Below, one piece after another: positions 5,616 through 49,044 of a stretch of DNA of 64,000 nt. Each line of letters begins with the position of its first letter. The first letter of the stretch is position 1. Position numbers and translations under genes: made by a program. The stretch lies in assembly GCA_024682255.1 (NCBI GenBank), contig GCA_024682255.1_4716.1; one strand, written 5' to 3'. This DNA comes from a phage. The notes beneath the pieces were generated by a model. That model made no database searches. It was not told the origin of the DNA and saw nothing but the letters and a program-made list of their open reading frames with translations.

Positions 5616-5647
5616 CCCTCCTCCAACCCAACAGGGAAGGAGGAGGG
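5616..5647. terminator. bidirectional hairpin terminator (CCCTCCTCC / GGAGGAGGG stem)
   Basis: Perfect 9-bp GC-rich stem with 14-nt loop containing an inner CCC/GGG mini-stem, between convergent genes ending at 5594 and 5657. Confidence 0.6.
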
Positions 5648-15640: not shown

Positions 15641-15707
15641 GAAATAAATCGGTTAAGTTTTACCTCCTTTCTCGATAAGTATGATACTAAGCGAGCAAGG
15701 AGTTGAT

Positions 15708-16814
15708 ATGTCGAGTAGTTATGAGTATCCAAAGATTACTGAATGTGTTGTTTCCGAAGAAGGTATCTTCGACCTCGATATGAAGCCGTTACCACTTACC
15801 GTGGAAGATGGAATATCGTACGTCAAACTTGACTGGTACCGTGGTCCCGGTCTGTATGACGCAGGTCTTGTGGTAATGCGTAAACTGCATGCTATCAACA
15901 TATACGAAGATCTGTTAGACGAAGCACATTCGTTGTATATCGATGGGAACCCAGAAAACATCAAACGTGAGAACTTGCTTTATCGTTTCAAGAACGGTAA
16001 GTTGGAACACAAGGGTTATCCGGGCTATTACTACGTCCCTTTCTTTACACACTACGTGATAAACGAGCAAGGCGAAGTGATCAGTCTTTTAACCGGGCAA
16101 AAGAAATCATGGACACGGTCGAAAGGGGATCCGAAACGAAATAAGCGTGCTGGGTACTTATATCAGCGCGTCGTTAATGATAATGGTTTCACAGCCCAAA
16201 TGTTTCAACATCGTGCGATGGGTTACGTGTTCCTGGAATACGGTGCCGACGTGATGACAAAGATCATCAACCACATAAACGGCATCAAATGGGATAATCG
16301 TCCATGCAACATTGAATGGACAACCTATTCTGAGAACAACAAGCATGCGATTGATAGCGGTCTTCGTACAGAAGGCTTACATCCTGTTAAGGTTAAGGAT
16401 TACAACACCGGTGAGGTTAGGGTATTCCCAACAATCGCTGCGTGCTGTGCTGCTTATCCATGCTTGGAACGTAAACGTGTTTGGTATTGGATGACGCGTA
16501 AAACGAAATTCATGCCAGCCTGCAATCTGTATTTCAAAGAAGTCGATGATGATACTCCGTGGCCAGATTGGCAAATCGGACAGCACCGTCGTCTTCAGGA
16601 ATACGATATGGGCCACCCTATCGCAGCTATCGATAAGCAAACCGGTAAACGTTATGTGTTTGCATCAATTGCTCACGCACAACGAGAGACGGGTGTTTCT
16701 AACGTGACTATCACGAAGTACTGTCGTAATAGACTTACAGAAGGTCGTTCTCCATTCATCTTCCGCTATTTTGAAGATGTTAGTTCGATGCCTGTAGGCC
16801 TTAACGACGCTTAA
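15708..16814 (+). CDS. HNH homing endonuclease with C-terminal HTH (NUMOD-like) region
   Basis: HNH motif region INHINGIKWDNRPCNIEWTTYSENNKHA; C-terminal IASIAHAQRETGVSNVTITKYC; ATG at 15708 with AAGGAG 5 nt upstream (track frame starts 15681). Confidence 0.75.
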   Translation: MSSSYEYPKITECVVSEEGIFDLDMKPLPLTVEDGISYVKLDWYRGPGLYDAGLVVMRKLHAINIYEDLLDEAHSLYIDGNPENIKRENLLYRFKNGKLEHKGYPGYYYVPFFTHYVINEQGEVISLLTGQKKSWTRSKGDPKRNKRAGYLYQRVVNDNGFTAQMFQHRAMGYVFLEYGADVMTKIINHINGIKWDNRPCNIEWTTYSENNKHAIDSGLRTEGLHPVKVKDYNTGEVRVFPTIAACCAAYPCLERKRVWYWMTRKTKFMPACNLYFKEVDDDTPWPDWQIGQHRRLQEYDMGHPIAAIDKQTGKRYVFASIAHAQRETGVSNVTITKYCRNRLTEGRSPFIFRYFEDVSSMPVGLNDA

Positions 16815-16827
16815 CCGATTTTAGGTC

Positions 16828-16852
16828 CCGGTGGGGATAACGCCCCCACCGG
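16828..16852 (+). terminator. hairpin after HNH gene (CCGGTGGGG / CCCCACCGG)
   Basis: Perfect 9-bp stem with 7-nt loop, 14 nt after the HNH stop. Confidence 0.5.
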
Positions 16853-16869
16853 ATTCCCGTTAATTGCTG

Positions 16870-17200
16870 GAACCCCCTAAAGCCTTTCGACCACAGCGGA
16901 TTCTGAAAAGAAAAACGCGATGGTTAGAAAACAGAAAGGATGTTCGTAAGGAAGCGATAAATGGGCAATCAGCAGCGAAGCTTCTAAGGGCGTGCGTTAG
17001 CAATAAGACCTAAGAAGAACGTTCAACGACTATCCGGTCGCGCGGAGTAAGGGACAAGCGTCCCCAAACACGGGAGGGGTGCGAAAGCATTCCATGATAT
17101 AGTCTGCTCCTAAGTGAAAGCTTAGGCGGGTGGCACACACCGGCATAAGAGTTGCGTCTTATGTGGACAATGGCTTGACATCTCCTCGTCCTACCCGAAT
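16870..17200 (+). ncRNA. putative group I intron catalytic core (R- and S-like elements, P9-like hairpin)
   Basis: GTTCAACGACTA (about 17021-17032) resembles the R element and GATATAGTC (about 17095-17103) the S element, with complementary GACTA/TAGTC for P7; followed by CCTAAG-TGAAAG-CTTAGG hairpin; sits directly after an HNH gene; boundaries uncertain. Confidence 0.35.
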
Positions 17201-17476
17201 GGGCAGATCCTGTTGAATCTATCCAGAGCATGTGTTTTTCGTGAGCTCTCACGCATTGAGGGCGTCTCTGACTATCAATTCAGGAAGTTAGGTATCAACT
17301 TTATTACCGGAGGTAAAACGAACGCTGTAGACTTCTGTAGAATCGTTTATAAAGCACCGTCGATGTTTGAACTTTTAGAACATTTCGATGCGACGCGTCC
17401 AAAAGAGGAAGCACGGACCATCGAATGAATCAAGTATGTTGATCCTCGTTTAACAAAAAAGAAAACGCATGCGAAG

Positions 17477-17508
17477 CCCCTCCCCCTGGCGGAAGCCGGA
17501 GGGAGGGG
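17477..17508 (-). terminator. hairpin terminator (CCCCTCCC / GGGAGGGG) with T-run on minus strand
   Basis: GC-rich stem followed on the minus strand by TTTTTTGTT; immediately after the gene ending at 17515. Confidence 0.55.
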
Positions 17509-17514
17509 TGGGGT

Positions 17515-18000
17515 TTATGTGTGTTCGTTGCCAACTTTCACTTTGTAATCAGCATCGGTTAAGAAAATAGACAGGAATCCATGTTCTTTGCAAATCTGAC
17601 TAAGGATGTCAGCAATGATTTCGTTGATCATCGGTTTGTTTGCAAGGGCATAGATGTACCCGGGTGTAAAAGAAAGTGCATGATTGATCATAGGCTCATG
17701 AGAAGCCAAGATAAGGATCACGTGATGCTTCCCATCGTCGGTAACGACCGCTTGCGTAGACACGAAGAAATCAGTGAAGCAGCAGCGATCACAGGCTTTA
17801 GGTATATACAAATCACCCAGAGCTTCGTCACGTGCTTTTACGTGTGTTTCAGGGGTAATGCTGCTAAGTTGATCTTCAGCGAGATCCAAGACATCCTCAA
17901 TCGTTTTAAGAATAGCGTTGCGGAAATCCTCGCGGTAGAATGGGATGATATCACGATCGTTCATGTAATCGCCGGATTCGATAGTAAAGTTGATGTTCAT
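17515..18000 (-). CDS. small hypothetical protein (161 aa)
   Basis: ATG with AGGAG 7 nt upstream; own downstream hairpin. Confidence 0.6.
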   Translation of the reverse strand: MNINFTIESGDYMNDRDIIPFYREDFRNAILKTIEDVLDLAEDQLSSITPETHVKARDEALGDLYIPKACDRCCFTDFFVSTQAVVTDDGKHHVILILASHEPMINHALSFTPGYIYALANKPMINEIIADILSQICKEHGFLSIFLTDADYKVKVGNEHT

Positions 18001-18070
18001 TGAATGCTCCTAGTGGTTATGTCGATTGATTGATGTATTGATTTATGTTTGAAGGTGTTGTTCACCTTCG

Positions 18071-18511
18071 TTAGATATCATCATCCGTGGTGCCGTAGGA
18101 CATATGCTGAATTAATTTTCTCGGCTCGATGAAAATACGACATGTGATAAACACATCGGGATCGTATTGCTCCACGCAACGTCCGAAGGCTTGTTTTGCG
18201 GCTTGACGCACCGATGTTATTTCCTGATCGTTCATCGCATTATCGAATTCGATGTTGATCGTGATTTTATCGGGAAATAAATAGATAAAGTAATCGCCAC
18301 TGATACCACCATCATCAAAGTGACGTTCATTGTAACACTGGACGAGCTTACCTTCACGTTCTTTCTGATACCATCCAAGGATACTATTAAGACCTCTGTC
18401 CACGCATTCGAATGCTTGAGTAATAACATCCTCAACGACGGAGGCTGCCGTGGGACCATTGAATAGACGATCTAAGCGCTTTTTCATCGATTTGTCGGTT
18501 TTCATGTTCAT
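18071..18511 (-). CDS. small hypothetical protein (~146 aa)
   Basis: Internal ATG (MNMK...) with AGGAAAAG upstream preferred over the track start at 18538, which would lie inside a hairpin. Confidence 0.55.
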   Translation of the reverse strand: MNMKTDKSMKKRLDRLFNGPTAASVVEDVITQAFECVDRGLNSILGWYQKEREGKLVQCYNERHFDDGGISGDYFIYLFPDKITINIEFDNAMNDQEITSVRQAAKQAFGRCVEQYDPDVFITCRIFIEPRKLIQHMSYGTTDDDI

Positions 18512-18542
18512 TGTTTCTTTTCCTGTTATAGTCAACATATAG

Positions 18543-18573
18543 CCCTTCCCCGGCCTTGACGGCTAGGGAAGGG
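18543..18573 (-). terminator. hairpin (CCCTTCCC / GGGAAGGG)
   Basis: 8-bp GC stem between genes 18589..18984 and 18071..18511; no strong T-run. Confidence 0.4.
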
Positions 18574-18588
18574 TATGTTTACGTATAT

Positions 18589-18984
18589 TTACTCTTTGAC
18601 GTCAGTTGTCGTTTCGACATGCTTCTCACTACTGACGTACCAGAGCAGGTACGCTGGGAAAAGATTGACCTCTAAGCTAAATGGGATATTGTATTTCTCT
18701 TCCATTTTACAGAGATGTTCTTTAAGTAAATTTCTCGCGTCTCTGTCACCACGAACAGAGTGCCAGTCTAGTTCTTTGTTCTCCTTTACCAGGACCTCTA
18801 CGATGATACGTTGCTCGTGAACCTCGGTTTTCACAGTGAAAAGTAAATCGCTGCTATCAAAACGGGTAAAACGAATGTATGAACCTGGTGTTTTTTCTTG
18901 TTTAATAATATCGATCATGGTAGAAATGCGCGGATGATCGATGTTGTCGTTAACAGCTTTAACGATGGATTCTACAATGCTCAT
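18589..18984 (-). CDS. small hypothetical protein (131 aa)
   Basis: ATG with AAGGA upstream. Confidence 0.6.
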   Translation of the reverse strand: MSIVESIVKAVNDNIDHPRISTMIDIIKQEKTPGSYIRFTRFDSSDLLFTVKTEVHEQRIIVEVLVKENKELDWHSVRGDRDARNLLKEHLCKMEEKYNIPFSLEVNLFPAYLLWYVSSEKHVETTTDVKE

Positions 18985-19141
18985 TTTTTATCCTTAATGT
19001 TATCGATTTAGAAATATTACTTAATTACTGTTTTATTTATCGATGGTTGTTACCCATGATGGGAAAGCCGGATGGAAACAGAGCGTGAACGTAACCTTCG
19101 TATCGTATTTAATCGCTGAACTTTATCTTTGATAGACATGA

Positions 19142-19600
19142 TTACCCCTTAGCTCCTTCTTCGTCTGGAGAGTATTCCATCGTGTAGAATTCATAACCAT
19201 CGGAAAACTTGAGTGTTAATGTAATAGGGAAATCGCACGGCATAGCTGATTTCGTAAATGCGTTATTAGCAACATCAGCCAACCGACGTATAGCATCGGT
19301 CCCGCTGACGCTGAACGGTAGTTGTATGTTGATAAGGATACGACGCTTGTAAACATAGAAAACAACGGTACTGTCGAGATAAACGCTATGGAACGGTATT
19401 GTTGGGATGCGTTCCACAATGGTAAAATACGTCCCGTCATTATCGCTATGCCCCATCGACCAAATATCGGATTTGCGTAGATTTTGTTTGAGGGATTCGA
19501 TACTTCGAGTGACGGTCTCAGCAACAGGCGTGACGTAAGTGTCTCTATGCGAGTCGAAAAGTTCGTTGACGTTAGATTCGAATGAATACATTGTTGCCAT
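19142..19600 (-). CDS. small hypothetical protein (152 aa), paralog of 19667..20161
   Basis: ATG with GAGGT upstream; C-terminus FPITLTLKFSDGYEFYTMEYSPDEE resembles MPVILTINGHDGSGLFEFHYDPDNE of the neighbouring gene. Confidence 0.6.
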   Translation of the reverse strand: MATMYSFESNVNELFDSHRDTYVTPVAETVTRSIESLKQNLRKSDIWSMGHSDNDGTYFTIVERIPTIPFHSVYLDSTVVFYVYKRRILINIQLPFSVSGTDAIRRLADVANNAFTKSAMPCDFPITLTLKFSDGYEFYTMEYSPDEEGAKG

Positions 19601-19626
19601 TTTCTACCTCAATAGTTTAACCGGCA

Positions 19627-19652
19627 CGTGTCCCCACCTAACAAGGGACACG
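19627..19652 (-). terminator. hairpin (CGTGTCCC / GGGACACG)
   Basis: Perfect 8-bp stem, 10-nt loop, between two small genes. Confidence 0.45.
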
Positions 19653-19666
19653 ATATCATCGATTAA

Positions 19667-20161
19667 TTACTCTTCTGTGTTTTCATTGTCAGGATCGTAG
19701 TGGAATTCGAACAGCCCTGAACCGTCGTGCCCGTTGATTGTTAGTATAACGGGCATATCGAATCCTCGGACGCGCGAATGAAAACACTGTGCTAATTTGA
19801 GTTTGGCGTATGCCACTATTTCATTGACGGCAATGCACGACTCACCTGTTATACTCAGTATAACGTCGATACTAACAATGTTGTCGTGCAACGCAAAACG
19901 CCAGCGATCGATACGATTATTATCTTTAGCAGGTGTCTCGTTTACGAGATAGACTTTATCGTCAACCGACAAAGCGGGACTCCAGCAACGTTCGTTTATT
20001 AAATTCGCCTGGAGTTTTAGTATCGTCTGATCAATAATATCCCAACACGCAACCAGCGTGGCGTCAGACACTGAATTGAGAAGGGTGAGTACTTTATCCT
20101 TTATTTTAAGTGCTTCCGCAGGACGCCCGCAAATACCATGCATTTCAACTTTCTTATTCAT
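19667..20161 (-). CDS. small hypothetical protein (~164 aa), paralog of 19142..19600
   Basis: Start set to the first ATG (third codon of the track frame); shared C-terminal motif with the previous gene. Confidence 0.55.
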   Translation of the reverse strand: MNKKVEMHGICGRPAEALKIKDKVLTLLNSVSDATLVACWDIIDQTILKLQANLINERCWSPALSVDDKVYLVNETPAKDNNRIDRWRFALHDNIVSIDVILSITGESCIAVNEIVAYAKLKLAQCFHSRVRGFDMPVILTINGHDGSGLFEFHYDPDNENTEE

Positions 20162-20206
20162 ATTCACTTCTTTCTTAATCTAAATGTTAGTTGGGGGATG
20201 GGATGC

Positions 20207-20809
20207 TTACATGCTTTCTAGCATATTGACGATCATGGAACCCATACCGAAACTCGGTCTCTCACCGATATACTCAGCAAGTTGACGGTGTACGTCTTTT
20301 GGATTTCCTTCTTCACCGTCAGCATCGATGTAGACCGAAAAAGAAACCGAATCGGAATCCACGCTGATAACCAGACGACGTTCATTGCGTTCCTTGAGCG
20401 TGTCGACGATAGATGCTTTCAGTACCGGGATCGCATTCATCGCGTGCAAGATATCTCCATCAGGTCTCGCCAGATCGATCTTTTCTTTCAGGTCGATATT
20501 GATGTTGGTTACAATTGGGTTGAGGTCGACCTTGACATAATCGTTGGGATACATGCGAATAATCGCACGATCGATATCTGAACCGTAAAAGTCAACACGT
20601 GGCTTTAACACCTCTTTGTTTGGATCCATGTTTTCATCCATACCCGCCTGCAAGAAACGTTCTACGTTATCCAGTTCACGATAAACTGACGCTTCGATTT
20701 CTTTCAGATAGTTGGCTGCGGTTTCATGTTCTTTACGTAGCTCGTCTTTAAGGAGCTGTACGGTGGTTTCACTGGAACGAATGCTGTTCGCGAATTGGGT
20801 AATTGACAT
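20207..20809 (-). CDS. hypothetical protein (~200 aa)
   Basis: Track frame starts at a TTG; internal ATG (MSITQF...) has AAGGA 8 nt upstream; contains VYIDADGEEG similar to VYIDCDG in the next gene. Confidence 0.55.
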   Translation of the reverse strand: MSITQFANSIRSSETTVQLLKDELRKEHETAANYLKEIEASVYRELDNVERFLQAGMDENMDPNKEVLKPRVDFYGSDIDRAIIRMYPNDYVKVDLNPIVTNINIDLKEKIDLARPDGDILHAMNAIPVLKASIVDTLKERNERRLVISVDSDSVSFSVYIDADGEEGNPKDVHRQLAEYIGERPSFGMGSMIVNMLESM

Positions 20810-20863
20810 ATCGAATTCCTTAAATTCTCTTGAGTTCAATTGATGATGAAAAGCTGTAAAAAA

Positions 20864-20881
20864 GGTGGGGCGAACCCCACC
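20864..20881 (-). terminator. rho-independent terminator (GGTGGGG-CGAA-CCCCACC)
   Basis: 7-bp stem with CGAA tetraloop followed on minus strand by TTTTTTACAGCTTTT; just after the gene ending at 20907. Confidence 0.65.
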
Positions 20882-20906
20882 AAAACGTCAGACACACGCA
20901 GGAAAA

Positions 20907-21332
20907 TTAATTCAGTGACGCATATAAGGCATAACGACTGTAGATTTCAACCGCCGGTCCGTTATGCGTTAACAGACCATCCCGGTTGTAATACTGGAAA
21001 AATGAATAACGTTTGTCGAAGTGATAAACAAAAGCAATGTCTTTGCCGTCAAAACCTGTGATGCGTGGTCTGTTTTTATCTAGCAATGCTTTAACTTTTA
21101 ACAGTGTTGCCGCACGTGCTTTAACGTTAGGGATCAAGCCATCACAATCGATATAAACAGTGTAACCTGTTTCAGATGTTGCGACGGTCGTATTGCGATT
21201 GACGCGGAAGATTTTTGTTTCGTATGTACTATCTTCAAGAATTGGGTTTTGTTTTTCGTATTTTCGTTTACGCAGAAATTCTACAACGGTGATATAGTTA
21301 GCGGTAATATGCCCGGTTATAGCTTGTAACAT
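20907..21332 (-). CDS. small hypothetical protein (141 aa)
   Basis: ATG with AAGGA upstream inside a conserved upstream element duplicated at 48937. Confidence 0.6.
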   Translation of the reverse strand: MLQAITGHITANYITVVEFLRKRKYEKQNPILEDSTYETKIFRVNRNTTVATSETGYTVYIDCDGLIPNVKARAATLLKVKALLDKNRPRITGFDGKDIAFVYHFDKRYSFFQYYNRDGLLTHNGPAVEIYSRYALYASLN

Positions 21333-21364
21333 CTCGACATCCTTTTATATTGGATTGATTGCAA
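21333..21364 (-). promoter_or_regulatory. conserved ~32-nt upstream element (copy 1)
   Basis: gacatccttttatattggattg core shared almost exactly with 48937..48968; contains TATAAAAGGA just 5' of the start codon. Confidence 0.4.
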
Positions 21365-21504
21365 TTGTCTTAAATAGATGATAAGATATTTTGCTCTTAT
21401 CACTAAGGTAACGCTTACGCGTCGCGTTCATGATGCATGGCATCATGAAGGTAATGTAGTCGTGAAATAAACTGCGTTAACACGAAATAAAAAACAGCAT
21501 AGAA

Positions 21505-21536
21505 CCCTCTCCCAACCCGTAAGGGAAGGGAGAGGG
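21505..21536 (-). terminator. two-tier hairpin terminator, exact 32-nt copy of 28673..28704
   Basis: ccctctccc-aacccgtaagggaa-gggagaggg; followed on minus strand by a T-run (TGTTTTTTATTT). Confidence 0.65.
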
Positions 21537-21549
21537 AATATTAAAATTG

Positions 21550-22005
21550 TCACTTTATATTGAACGCTTTTCGCAACGCATTAAGAACTAAATTAATTTC
21601 TTGCGCTTGTAACTTTAATCCCTGTGCTGAGCCATCAAACCCAAGCCAACGCCATACAAGGCATTTTACAGGTTTGTTGCTATCGTCGATACTATATGTG
21701 ATCTCCAGTGTACTTTGATACGCGTAGTCACCATGTGTTTTCAGTGACTGATTGAAATAAATATCAAATGCTTCTTCTATAGCCTGTTTACCGCGATCGT
21801 TACAAACAAACGCGATGTATCCGTCGGAATATCCAACTTCCTCTGGATGTCCTTGGCAGGAGAAAATACTGATGGCGTCTTGCTGAGCAAGATTGAACAC
21901 CGTGAAGAAATCACCAAATAAAGGATCGAGATTTAATGCGTTGTTATCGATAAGGTTCCTTACCGCTTTACGGTATTCTCCCAGACTATTGTTCGCTGTA
22001 AACAT
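21550..22005 (-). CDS. small hypothetical protein (151 aa)
   Basis: ATG with AAAGG upstream. Confidence 0.6.
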   Translation of the reverse strand: MFTANNSLGEYRKAVRNLIDNNALNLDPLFGDFFTVFNLAQQDAISIFSCQGHPEEVGYSDGYIAFVCNDRGKQAIEEAFDIYFNQSLKTHGDYAYQSTLEITYSIDDSNKPVKCLVWRWLGFDGSAQGLKLQAQEINLVLNALRKAFNIK

Positions 22006-22015
22006 TCTTTTACCT

Positions 22016-22417
22016 TTAAATATCGTGGATAGCGGTGCCGTTTAGCCAACAATACAACTTAATGCGACACGGATAGCGATTCGTAGCCAAGAGCAGTTCA
22101 TCGCGTAAACGCTGGTAGATTTCATCCTGGTGTTCGCGATCAATGGGGTAATCGGCCCAACATTCGATCATGACGTCACCATTCGTCAGAATCGTCGTAC
22201 GCATCCTGTCCTGGATACGGCGGTCTTTCCCGGCATTAGGGAAATACATTCCTTCGGTACGAATAAGGTCGCCGCAGGGCATGACTAACCATTCGTTCGT
22301 TTTGCCGGTATTCTTATAATCCATTACAGCTTGCATTGCGGTGTCAACGCTAAAAGAAACATAATTCCAAACGGATGTCCAACGATAGATTGCGGGTTGT
22401 TCGAGTGTTTCGTTCAT
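22016..22417 (-). CDS. small hypothetical protein (133 aa)
   Basis: ATG start; 10-nt gap to downstream gene. Confidence 0.55.
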   Translation of the reverse strand: MNETLEQPAIYRWTSVWNYVSFSVDTAMQAVMDYKNTGKTNEWLVMPCGDLIRTEGMYFPNAGKDRRIQDRMRTTILTNGDVMIECWADYPIDREHQDEIYQRLRDELLLATNRYPCRIKLYCWLNGTAIHDI

Positions 22418-22471
22418 GGAGTGCTTGTCCTATTTTTATTTTCTGCACAGGATAAATTCAACGGCATAAAG

Positions 22472-22503
22472 CCCTTCCCTGCCCTTATATGGGGCGGGAA
22501 GAG
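22472..22503 (-). terminator. imperfect hairpin (CCCTTCCCTGCCC / GGGGCGGGAAGAG)
   Basis: GC-rich bulged stem downstream of the gene ending at 22632. Confidence 0.35.
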
Positions 22504-22631: not shown

Positions 22632-23258
22632 TTATGCAAAGCGACGCATGTAACCTGCCAGATAGTTACGCGTATCGAAGTAAGCAATTTCAGGAATTGC
22701 GATGTTAAGGTCGATAGCGCGGATTTCAACTTGGCGACGGCTTTCATCATAGATCGCATCCATCAGACGCAGTACTGTCAGGAAAGCCATGCGGGTATGG
22801 TAGTCCAGCGGCATGTTGTCGATACCGCGATACAGATAACGGTTTGCGTTAAATGCCCCTTCGCTGTTATCTTTCCAGATCTTCAGAATATCAGCAAAGG
22901 CGGTGCGGAAAACCTCAGGATTATCCACATCCAGTAACGCACGGAAGGCAGACATTAAAGACCGCTGATGGCGGATCAACGACTGCGGCGTTTGCGGCAT
23001 GGTTGGACCCATTTCTTCCGCATATTTCTGGAACGGGGCAACCAGGGTTGCGGCACGAGAAGCCACGATAGAAACAGCAGGCGATTCTTTCACCGCTGGT
23101 TTCGCAGGCTTTTCTTCAACAACGGTTTCCTTCTTCTCAACAGCGACCGTTTCCGGCTGTGCTACAACATCACTAACCGGAGCATCTGCAACGGTGGTTT
23201 CTACCGCAGTAATCTCCTCGTCCATTTTTGCAGAACGTTGGTCTTTATTCTTGCTCAT
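22632..23258 (-). CDS. hypothetical protein (208 aa) with low-complexity E/K/P/V-rich N-terminus
   Basis: ATG with AAGGA 8 nt upstream. Confidence 0.6.
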   Translation of the reverse strand: MSKNKDQRSAKMDEEITAVETTVADAPVSDVVAQPETVAVEKKETVVEEKPAKPAVKESPAVSIVASRAATLVAPFQKYAEEMGPTMPQTPQSLIRHQRSLMSAFRALLDVDNPEVFRTAFADILKIWKDNSEGAFNANRYLYRGIDNMPLDYHTRMAFLTVLRLMDAIYDESRRQVEIRAIDLNIAIPEIAYFDTRNYLAGYMRRFA

Positions 23259-28672: not shown

Positions 28673-28704
28673 CCCTCTCCCAACCCGTAAGGGAAGGGAG
28701 AGGG
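28673..28704. terminator. bidirectional two-tier hairpin, exact copy of 21505..21536
   Basis: Identical 32-nt ccctctcccaacccgtaagggaagggagaggg between convergent genes ending at 28656 and 28722. Confidence 0.6.
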
Positions 28705-33112: not shown

Positions 33113-33142
33113 GCTCCTCCTTCCCTGACGGGTTGGAGGAGC
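33113..33142 (-). terminator. two-tier hairpin of the same family in opposite orientation
   Basis: GCTCCTCC-ttccctgacgggtt-GGAGGAGC; loop is the reverse complement form of the aaccc-N4-gggaa loop seen at 5616, 21505 and 28673. Confidence 0.5.
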
Positions 33143-49006: not shown

Positions 49007-49044
49007 TAAGTAATATAGCCGTGAAAATTAATGTATTAACCTAT

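Follow-up and report, generated by a model that had tools for sequence, protein, structure and literature searches.

Nine small genes between a polymerase exon and a capsid decoration gene

The 64,000-nucleotide stretch of phage DNA analysed here (contig GCA_024682255.1_4716.1; hereafter the window) carries at positions 17477–22503 a block of nine small genes, g1 to g9, all on the minus strand. A sequence-only reading of the window had described them as a cassette of proteins of 131–200 aa between a replication-type and a morphogenesis-type region; all nine open reading frames (ORFs) were found where it had placed them, and the flanks proved to be a DNA polymerase gene and a capsid gene. The sole match to this 5.2-kb region among 50,697 phage records is Escherichia phage vB_EcoM_Goslar, a nucleus-forming jumbo phage of E. 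coli and a member of the Chimalliviridae (chimalliviruses). DNA identity between the window and Goslar is about 92–95% overall, ~95% in the flanks and 87–89% in the island. On the right, the island lies directly downstream of g10 (22632–23258, minus strand) and on the same strand as this gene, an orthologue of Goslar gp77 with 94.8% identity to the gp77 locus; gp77 is the capsid decoration protein of the virion according to a cryo-EM study (bioRxiv 10.64898/2026.04.21.720040). On the left, it is convergent with exon 2 of a family B DNA polymerase gene (17174–17428, plus strand), which begins with LDISSSYPNG and aligns to residues 503–572 of gp111 of Klebsiella phage Eowyn, directly continuing the end of Goslar gp68. 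The Goslar record labels all island counterparts, gp70 to gp76, as "hypothetical protein" and annotates one terminator there, and our literature searches found no study of gp70–76.

Starting from the polymerase side, g1 (17515–18000; orthologue of Goslar gp70) encodes an acidic (pI 4.7), soluble orphan protein of 161 aa, is present in seven loci and has a ratio of nonsynonymous to synonymous substitution rates (dN/dS) of 0.12. A 140-aa ORF antisense to it (17581–18003, plus strand) is open in relative L002 too; it is probably spurious, because the low dN/dS of g1 marks g1 as the coding frame. The 146-aa product of g2 (18071–18511; gp71) starts with MNMKTDK. The start listed mechanically for this gene, an ATG at 18538 (18538–18512, minus strand), sits in the terminator tail CTATATG, and the longer ORF call is probably an artefact with the true start at 18511, because homologues such as P0021 start at MNMKTDK. 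g3 (18589–18984; 131 aa) is absent from Goslar, where positions 18592–19155 of the window have no counterpart. It is followed by g4 (19142–19600; 152 aa; gp72), whose dN/dS of 0.39 makes it the fastest-evolving orthologue group of the island, by g5 (19667–20161; 164 aa; gp73), by the very acidic (pI 4.7) orphan g6 (20207–20809; 200 aa; gp74) and by the basic (pI 9.4) orphan g7 (20907–21332; 141 aa; gp75). The accessory gene g8 (21550–22005; 151 aa) is missing from Goslar; of the 11 loci that extend to its place, 6 have it. The orphan g9 (22016–22417; 133 aa; gp76) is found in every related locus.

None of the nine proteins has a hydrophobic segment, and all are acidic (pI 4.7–5.6) with the exception of g7. 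The genes are real, as all nine have orthologues under purifying selection (dN/dS 0.09–0.39, with dS up to 0.9; 0.02 for the RNA polymerase subunit). No island protein had an above-threshold match in Pfam, PHROGs, NCBIfam or PADLOC, among which there is no dedicated anti-defence library, and a structural or replication function was identifiable from them for none of the nine. Of the island genes, g8 alone has any trace beyond the Goslar lineage. Only 4 homologue clusters of it were found in 5.8 billion proteins; it has a weak partial match in the unannotated 269-kb jumbo Serratia phage KpGz_1 (L121 4001–4174; 36% identity over 61 aa, E 6e-6) and a weak match to phrog_21654 (E 8.5e-5).

Gene content differs in every related locus

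Ten Goslar-like loci, gathered by anchoring on the adjacent RNA polymerase subunit, have ten different gene contents. The comparison with syntenic regions that had been proposed as a check of the sequence-only reading hence shows a hypervariable block, and neither strict conservation nor genes with identifiable functions, the outcome that would have spoken against that reading, was observed. Complete islands hold 7–14 genes, with 7 in Goslar (the smallest version), 9 in the window and 14 in L008. No complete island lacks g9, g7 or g6, and no locus that reaches as far as g4 lacks that gene; most loci also have g2 and g1, and g8, g3 and the further paralog types found in relatives (the c-types described below) are sporadic. 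The nearest other genus is represented by Eowyn, at 34% identity of the polymerase subunit. There, just 41 bp and no island separate the homologues of the two flanking genes, and it is this absence from the syntenic site that marks the island as lineage-specific. Searches of complete E. coli genomes and a plasmid collection recovered no relative, and a contig scan with the RNA polymerase subunit returned only bacterial rpoB genes of Campylobacterota. We consider it very probable that Goslar-like chimalliviruses have here a hyperplastic island of accessory genes specific to their lineage, located between the last exon of the polymerase gene and the capsid decoration gene.

One short metagenomic contig (L011 2097–4560) has after g9 an unrelated array of three ORFs of 246–298 aa instead. 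Two of these share, by eye, the motifs HLPEHIKANL and IHP(L/M)G(Y/F), and none of the three had a Pfam match.

A family of paralogs confined to the island

Part of the island consists of diverged paralogs. The sequence-only reading had noted that g4 and g5 share a C-terminal motif; both the motif and the paralogy are real, with the spacing slightly different from that given and correctly read as DG-x7-Y-x-PD-x-E. An end-to-end alignment of g4 with g5 shows 21% identity (E 3e-6 against a database of 10 sequences), and the structural model of g4 matches the BFVD model of Goslar gp73, the orthologue of g5, with a template modelling (TM) score of 0.75 (E 1.2e-11). Iterative searches with jackhmmer define a family, here called family A, that comprises g4, g5 and g2 (the latter linked to the other two by jackhmmer and hmmsearch) together with seven further paralog types in relatives, c28, c30, c43, c47, c56, c77 and c79. 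Its members are proteins of ~150 aa with the succession helix-helix, four strands, helix, two strands, with near-invariant L41, W47 and D123 (g4 numbering) and frequently with a C-terminal Y-x-P-D/S, a pattern that g2, g4 and g5 fit. The N-terminus of the family retains the segment S-[IFM]-K-x-x-[VL]-x-x-[LI]. A second family, family B, unites g3 with the c36 type; its distant relation to family A is confined to the C-terminal half (81 columns; hhalign probability 90.4%, E 1.4e-6). Overall, at least ten further paralog types occur in relatives. The highest dN/dS values of the neighbourhood (up to 0.39) belong to orthologue groups of family A.

The remaining genes stand apart. Iterative profile searches and hhalign detected no sequence relation of g1, g6, g7, g8 or g9 to other island genes or to family A, so that clustering of the nine proteins yields one family of three, a profile link to g3 and five proteins with no detectable relation. 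A second paralog pair had been suggested from the heptapeptide VYID(A/C)DG in g6 and g7; both proteins do contain it, yet a relation between them has no statistical support (blastp E 0.008 against a database of 10 sequences, hhalign probability 3.7%). We also considered a single superfamily of all nine genes and found no sequence support for it beyond g2–g5.

Family A has no match in Pfam, PHROG, NCBIfam or PADLOC. When 5.8 billion proteins were searched twice with profiles, 134 and 94 clusters were recovered; the named sources of the matches were E. coli, Salmonella or Shigella assemblies, or metagenomes, and many matches lay on short contigs. An exhaustive HMMER search of 1.84 billion representatives gave 22 matches, of which the full-length small ones were all family A, whereas four long ones (323–2157 aa) aligned only in short stretches, one that we inspected being a tandem repeat. 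Beyond Goslar-like phages, this search turned up nothing that could credibly be assigned to the family, which in the Goslar genome and the window occurs at the island locus alone. The AlphaFold2 model of g4 (from a 49-sequence alignment; predicted local distance difference test (pLDDT) score 85.7, predicted TM score 0.77) is a well-packed domain of topology HH-EEEE-H-EE, i.e., two helices, a four-stranded sheet, a long helix and two strands, in which the conserved N-terminal segment of the family forms helix 1. Foldseek comparison of this model with the PDB gave nothing at E <=1e-3, with TM scores of at most 0.40, and the search of BFVD returned Goslar gp73 only. Structure prediction, which had likewise been proposed, was thus informative for g4, with a confident model and no close match in the PDB, but not for g8, whose model is poor (pLDDT 62). 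Judged by its predicted fold and its distribution in sequence collections, family A is a previously undescribed orphan alpha/beta protein family, confined to the island locus and to this phage lineage.

Duplication, deletion and recombination within the island

The relatives and the window preserve traces of the turnover. Between g4 and g3 lies a pseudogene (19033–19139, minus strand), the deletion remnant of a two-domain family A paralog of 250–255 aa, the c28 type. What survives is the start of the gene, 10 codons (MSIKDKVQRL), and its end, 25 codons (YDTKVTFTLCFHPAFPSWVTTIDK) that lie in a different frame, with ~650 bp missing; these ends match P0097/P0100 and L005 14937–15701. Hybrid genes occur in public assemblies: in P0206 the N-terminus of g5 is joined to the C-terminus of c43 at a common NNRI, and in P0210 the N-terminus of c30 is joined to the C-terminus of c47. 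Internally deleted or frameshifted copies are represented by P0227, P0214 and P0224. With paralogs no more than 20–30% identical, misassembly is an improbable source of such hybrids and decayed copies. A different kind of change affects g8, which together with its own hairpin is inserted exactly between the g9 stop codon and a conserved TTCTATG tail, in place of a different hairpin. The endpoints of this indel coincide with a hairpin motif, those of the c28 deletion and of the paralog hybrids do not. Very probably, family A is thus a birth-and-death family that grows by tandem duplication, including a two-domain fusion, and shrinks via deletions between or within neighbouring paralogs, which leaves a different set in each related genome.

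Predicted terminators and transcription units

Six GC-rich hairpins had been reported from the sequence, one thought to separate each gene from the next. All six exist; folded as RNA and scored against dinucleotide shuffles, they exceed these in stability (dG -14 to -28 kcal/mol, z -2.3 to -5.3), and their positions are mostly conserved in relatives. However, only four of the eight internal junctions (g8/g7, g7/g6, g5/g4 and g3/g2) have a hairpin, with one more at each end of the island, and no hairpin was found at g9/g8, g6/g5, g4/g3 or g2/g1. The genes are not individually terminated as had been supposed: the nine form five terminator-bounded units, g9-g8, g7, g6-g5, g4-(remnant)-g3 and g2-g1.

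The published terminator consensus of phage phiKZ, 5'-BCCYCCCCHWWDGGGRRGGBYTTATKYYGT-3', is found at 61 terminators of that phage (Putzeys et al. 2024, PMC10914365). Its C-tract/G-tract stem (BCCYCCCC ... GGGRRGG) is present at 17477, 18543, 21505 and 22472, and other stems occur at 19627 and 20864. The tail YTTATKYYGT is strict at 22472 (CTTTATGCCGT), close at 21505 (TTCTATGCTGT) and 18543 (CTATATGTTG), and absent at 17477, 19627 and 20864. The terminator of the g10/g9 junction (22470–22503, with the hairpin at 22472; dG -24.4, z -4.1), a strict match to the motif, has an imperfect stem followed by the tail quoted. The phiKZ-type terminator after g8 (21505–21536; dG -25.9, z -5.3) is built in two tiers and has an identical 32-nt copy at 28673–28704. 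At the g3/g2 junction, the phiKZ-type terminator (18543–18573; dG -24.1, z -4.6; position conserved) reads CCCTTCCC..GGGAAGGG, then CTATATG. The hairpin closing the island (17477–17508; dG -27.7, z -3.2) has the stem CCCCTCCC/GGGGAGGGG and a T-rich tail, GTTTTCTTTTTT, that begins 11 nt past the stem; it is conserved in relatives and convergent with exon 2 of the polymerase gene. After g7 stands a classical intrinsic terminator (20864–20881; GGTGGGG-TTCG-CCCCACC + T6), present in all loci and carried as a terminator by the Goslar record. At the g5/g4 junction, the hairpin (19627–19652; dG -16.1, z -2.25) is weaker than the other five. It is of a generic type without a TTATG tail, is found in some relatives only and is matched in stability by 6 of 200 shuffles. 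All of these elements are on the minus strand.

Matches to the phiKZ consensus, exact or near, extend beyond those in the island (22472, 21505 and 18543) to 5616, 28673, 45687 and 52549, and C/G-tract hairpins with TTATG a few bases on are likewise found in the 64 kb at 5616, 28673, 33113, 38737, 45687 and 52549. TATG occurs within 9 nt of 8 of the 24 strong minus-strand hairpins, against a background of 2%. Because copies of the phiKZ-type motif are spread across the whole window, the hairpins are ordinary predicted transcription terminators of the phage family and not a cassette-specific device. They resemble the terminators of phiKZ (PMC10914365) and 201phi2-1 (PMC11512511) in having a C-tract/G-tract stem-loop followed at once by TTAT(G/T)YYGT, in being intergenic and, in some cases, in being bidirectional at convergent genes. 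They differ in their longer loops, often with a second small inner stem, and, in place of TTATG, the predicted element at 21505 has TCTATG and that at 18543 TATATG. A two-tier sub-family, at 5616–5647, 21505–21536, 28673–28704 and 33113–33142, combines an outer C/G-tract stem of 8–9 bp, a small internal loop and an inner CCC/GGG stem. Rfam recorded no RNA family inside the island.

The late promoter of phiKZ, used by the non-virion RNA polymerase (nvRNAP), is TATG (PMC12809450), and we had first read the TATG after most hairpins as such a promoter, forming a terminator-promoter module. This was dropped as the primary reading because the tail belongs to the published phiKZ terminator consensus (PMC10914365) and because the 28673 hairpin, between convergent genes, has the tail on both strands, with nothing to promote. 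The TTATG tail overlaps the nvRNAP late-promoter consensus, and a dual terminator-promoter role is conceivable.

An early-promoter-like element upstream of g7

Upstream of g7 lies an early-promoter-like element (21451–21467, minus strand), TTTCACGACTACATTAC(CTTCATGA), with two mismatches to the consensus TTTCACGGCTATATTAC. This candidate promoter consensus of Goslar-like phages, in longer form TTTCACGGCTATATTAC(YT..GTGA), was derived by us starting from the sequence ahead of chmA in Goslar. It includes the early core of phiKZ, TATATTAC, and occurs in Goslar at nine sites, all on the minus strand (2560, 15060, 49725, 86698, 113790, 142793, 160784, 166062 and 172971), the chmA site among them. 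Two matches fall in the window (21451–21467 and 49010–49026, both on the minus strand), compared with 0.23 expected by chance, and the one in the island is conserved in all aligned relatives. The phiKZ early core alone was not enriched in the window, so that the longer Goslar consensus is needed for recognition. Given the conserved element, g7 is probably an early gene transcribed from a promoter of the virion-RNA-polymerase type. With this element upstream and the classical terminator downstream, g7 is the sole gene of the island that forms a unit of its own. A scan for sigma-70 promoters found fewer sites than in shuffled sequence, a scarcity expected for a phage that is independent of the host RNA polymerase. 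For Goslar, an RNA-seq study gives 175 of 249 genes as detected at 5 min (bioRxiv 10.1101/2023.09.20.558163).

An intron in the flanking polymerase gene

At 15641–17173 (plus strand), the polymerase gene next to the island, an orthologue of Goslar gp68, is split just before LDISSSYPNG by a group I intron (Rfam RF00028 at 16801–17126, 68.7 bits, E 2.7e-16) that contains an HNH/NUMOD1 endonuclease ORF (15681–16814). Intron and endonuclease differ almost wholly in sequence between the window and Goslar, although the exons are ~95% identical; the Goslar record annotates neither an intron nor exon 2 at this site.

Possible functions of the island products

The block had been regarded as typical of host-takeover or anti-defence islands. 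Several features of the context fit this idea, namely small soluble proteins, eight of them acidic, one early-type unit and very high turnover, and they make an anti-defence or host-takeover role plausible. Our tentative proposal is that the island products would be dispensable, non-virion binders of host or competitor factors that serve host takeover or counter-defence; g7 at least would be expressed early, and the diversification of the family would reflect an arms race. In agreement with a non-virion role, the main text of the Goslar cryo-EM study names none of gp70–76, whether as one of its 28 modelled proteins or as an abundant virion protein left unmodelled (bioRxiv 10.64898/2026.04.21.720040). 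Several observations weigh against the proposal. Searches of Pfam, PHROGs, NCBIfam and PADLOC gave no homology or motif by which one of the nine proteins could be linked to a host target or a defence system, and a promoter could be recognised for one of the five units, with none found for the other four. The island is also, as far as sequence comparison can tell, not one homogeneous system, because no relation of g1, g6, g7, g8 and g9 to each other or to family A was detected. High turnover and frequent decay would fit weakly selected genes as well, and packaging at low copy number may be compatible with the main text of the virion study. Taken as a whole, i.e., the island together with its putative function, we regard this as the best explanation and as a reasonably probable one.

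A more specific version concerns family A, which may, although we think this rather unlikely, be a structurally new, lineage-restricted and diversifying family of binders that provides an interchangeable arsenal against cytoplasmic host immunity or for persistent infection. Nucleus-forming phages are shielded from DNA-targeting defences, and the host conflicts that remain to them are for this reason probably cytoplasmic and fought via small proteins of the kind encoded in the island. The immunity targeted would consist of systems that sense protein or RNA and cannot be kept out by the phage nucleus, and new binder specificities would arise by tandem duplication and by recombination of neighbouring paralogs.

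An alternative without any such function is that the island is nearly neutral, decaying ORFan DNA, a recombination-prone junk yard that persists for no other reason than being harmless. Remnants of deletions, copies with frameshifts and truncated hybrids are indeed common, each genome has a different gene content, and the orthologue groups of family A have the highest dN/dS nearby. Yet all orthologue groups remain well under a dN/dS of 1 at synonymous divergences of up to 0.9; g9, g7 and g6 persist in all complete islands and g4 wherever the locus extends to it; terminators and the promoter-like element are conserved; and the family A model is a high-confidence, well-packed domain. Together these observations render wholesale neutrality improbable.

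The position of the island directly downstream of the capsid decoration gene, on the same strand, raises the further alternative that its products are packaged and injected like the polymorphic internal proteins of T-even phages, i.e., targeted to the capsid, delivered with the DNA and acting at the earliest stage of infection. The N-terminal segment of family A, kept while the rest of the protein diverges, might be taken for a packaging signal, and Goslar virions contain many unassigned proteins (bioRxiv 10.64898/2026.04.21.720040). However, the main text of the cryo-EM study does not name gp70–76 among the virion proteins, the segment is helix 1 of the modelled fold and not a detachable signal, and the promoter-like element of g7 is of the early type, whereas packaged proteins should be late; we judge packaging to be quite improbable. 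Equally hard to credit is a role in phage-phage competition or a carrier state, in which the island would modulate superinfection, or the persistent non-lysogenic association of Goslar-like phages with Enterobacteriaceae isolates, and not classical defence: 59 of the 60 known Goslar-like genomes come, as persistent infections, from bacterial assemblies (bioRxiv 10.1101/2024.12.31.630880), all family A matches with a named source derive from E. coli, Salmonella or Shigella assemblies or metagenomes, and the island is specific to the Goslar-like lineage, but the link is purely correlative, no sequence feature points there, and plaque-forming Goslar, with the smallest version of the island, still has seven genes.

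Relation to known systems and implications

The closest system in kind is that of the hyperplastic regions of T4-type phages with their promoter-early stem-loop (PeSL) cassettes (Arbiol et al. 2010, PMC2839356; Comeau et al. 2014, PMC4122927). There, too, blocks of small ORFans lie between conserved core genes and differ between phages that are ~95% identical, and stem-loop motifs mark gene borders; the g8 indel ends exactly at such a motif and brought its own copy of a hairpin. In contrast to PeSL regions, the repeated border motif in the Goslar-like island is a predicted terminator and not a composite of early promoter and stem-loop, the island has a single early-promoter-like element, and its hairpins flank units of one or two genes, at four of eight junctions. 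Furthermore, most of the turnover (g3, c28, c43, c30, c47) takes place inside units, by duplication and deletion of paralogs instead of cassette exchange. Phage morons, autonomous modules of promoter, gene and terminator, are resembled by g7 with its promoter-like element, single gene and classical terminator, but g7 is present in all complete related islands and not sporadic, and the other eight genes do not form single-gene modules. A third comparison is with the polymorphic internal-protein loci of T-even phages, reportedly described by Repoila et al. in 1994; one internal protein, IPI*, is an anti-restriction protein. These loci likewise are tandem arrays of small, fast-diverging paralogs by head genes that vary between close relatives. 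They share no sequence or structural relation with the island, and the main text of the Goslar virion study does not name gp70–76 as virion proteins.

The region is thus a genuine hyperplastic accessory island, an instance of a phenomenon familiar in large virulent phages, with a protein family that is new and in a region on which we found no previous work. Two transcription-related motifs, the phiKZ terminator motif and the chmA-type promoter-like motif, recur in an E. coli chimallivirus. The island adds an uncharacterised protein family without recognisable structural relatives, and it is the place where the model phage Goslar (gp70–76) and its relatives in clinical Enterobacteriaceae assemblies differ most. 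It offers a compact list of candidates and a natural panel of variants for screens of counter-defence, host takeover or persistence.

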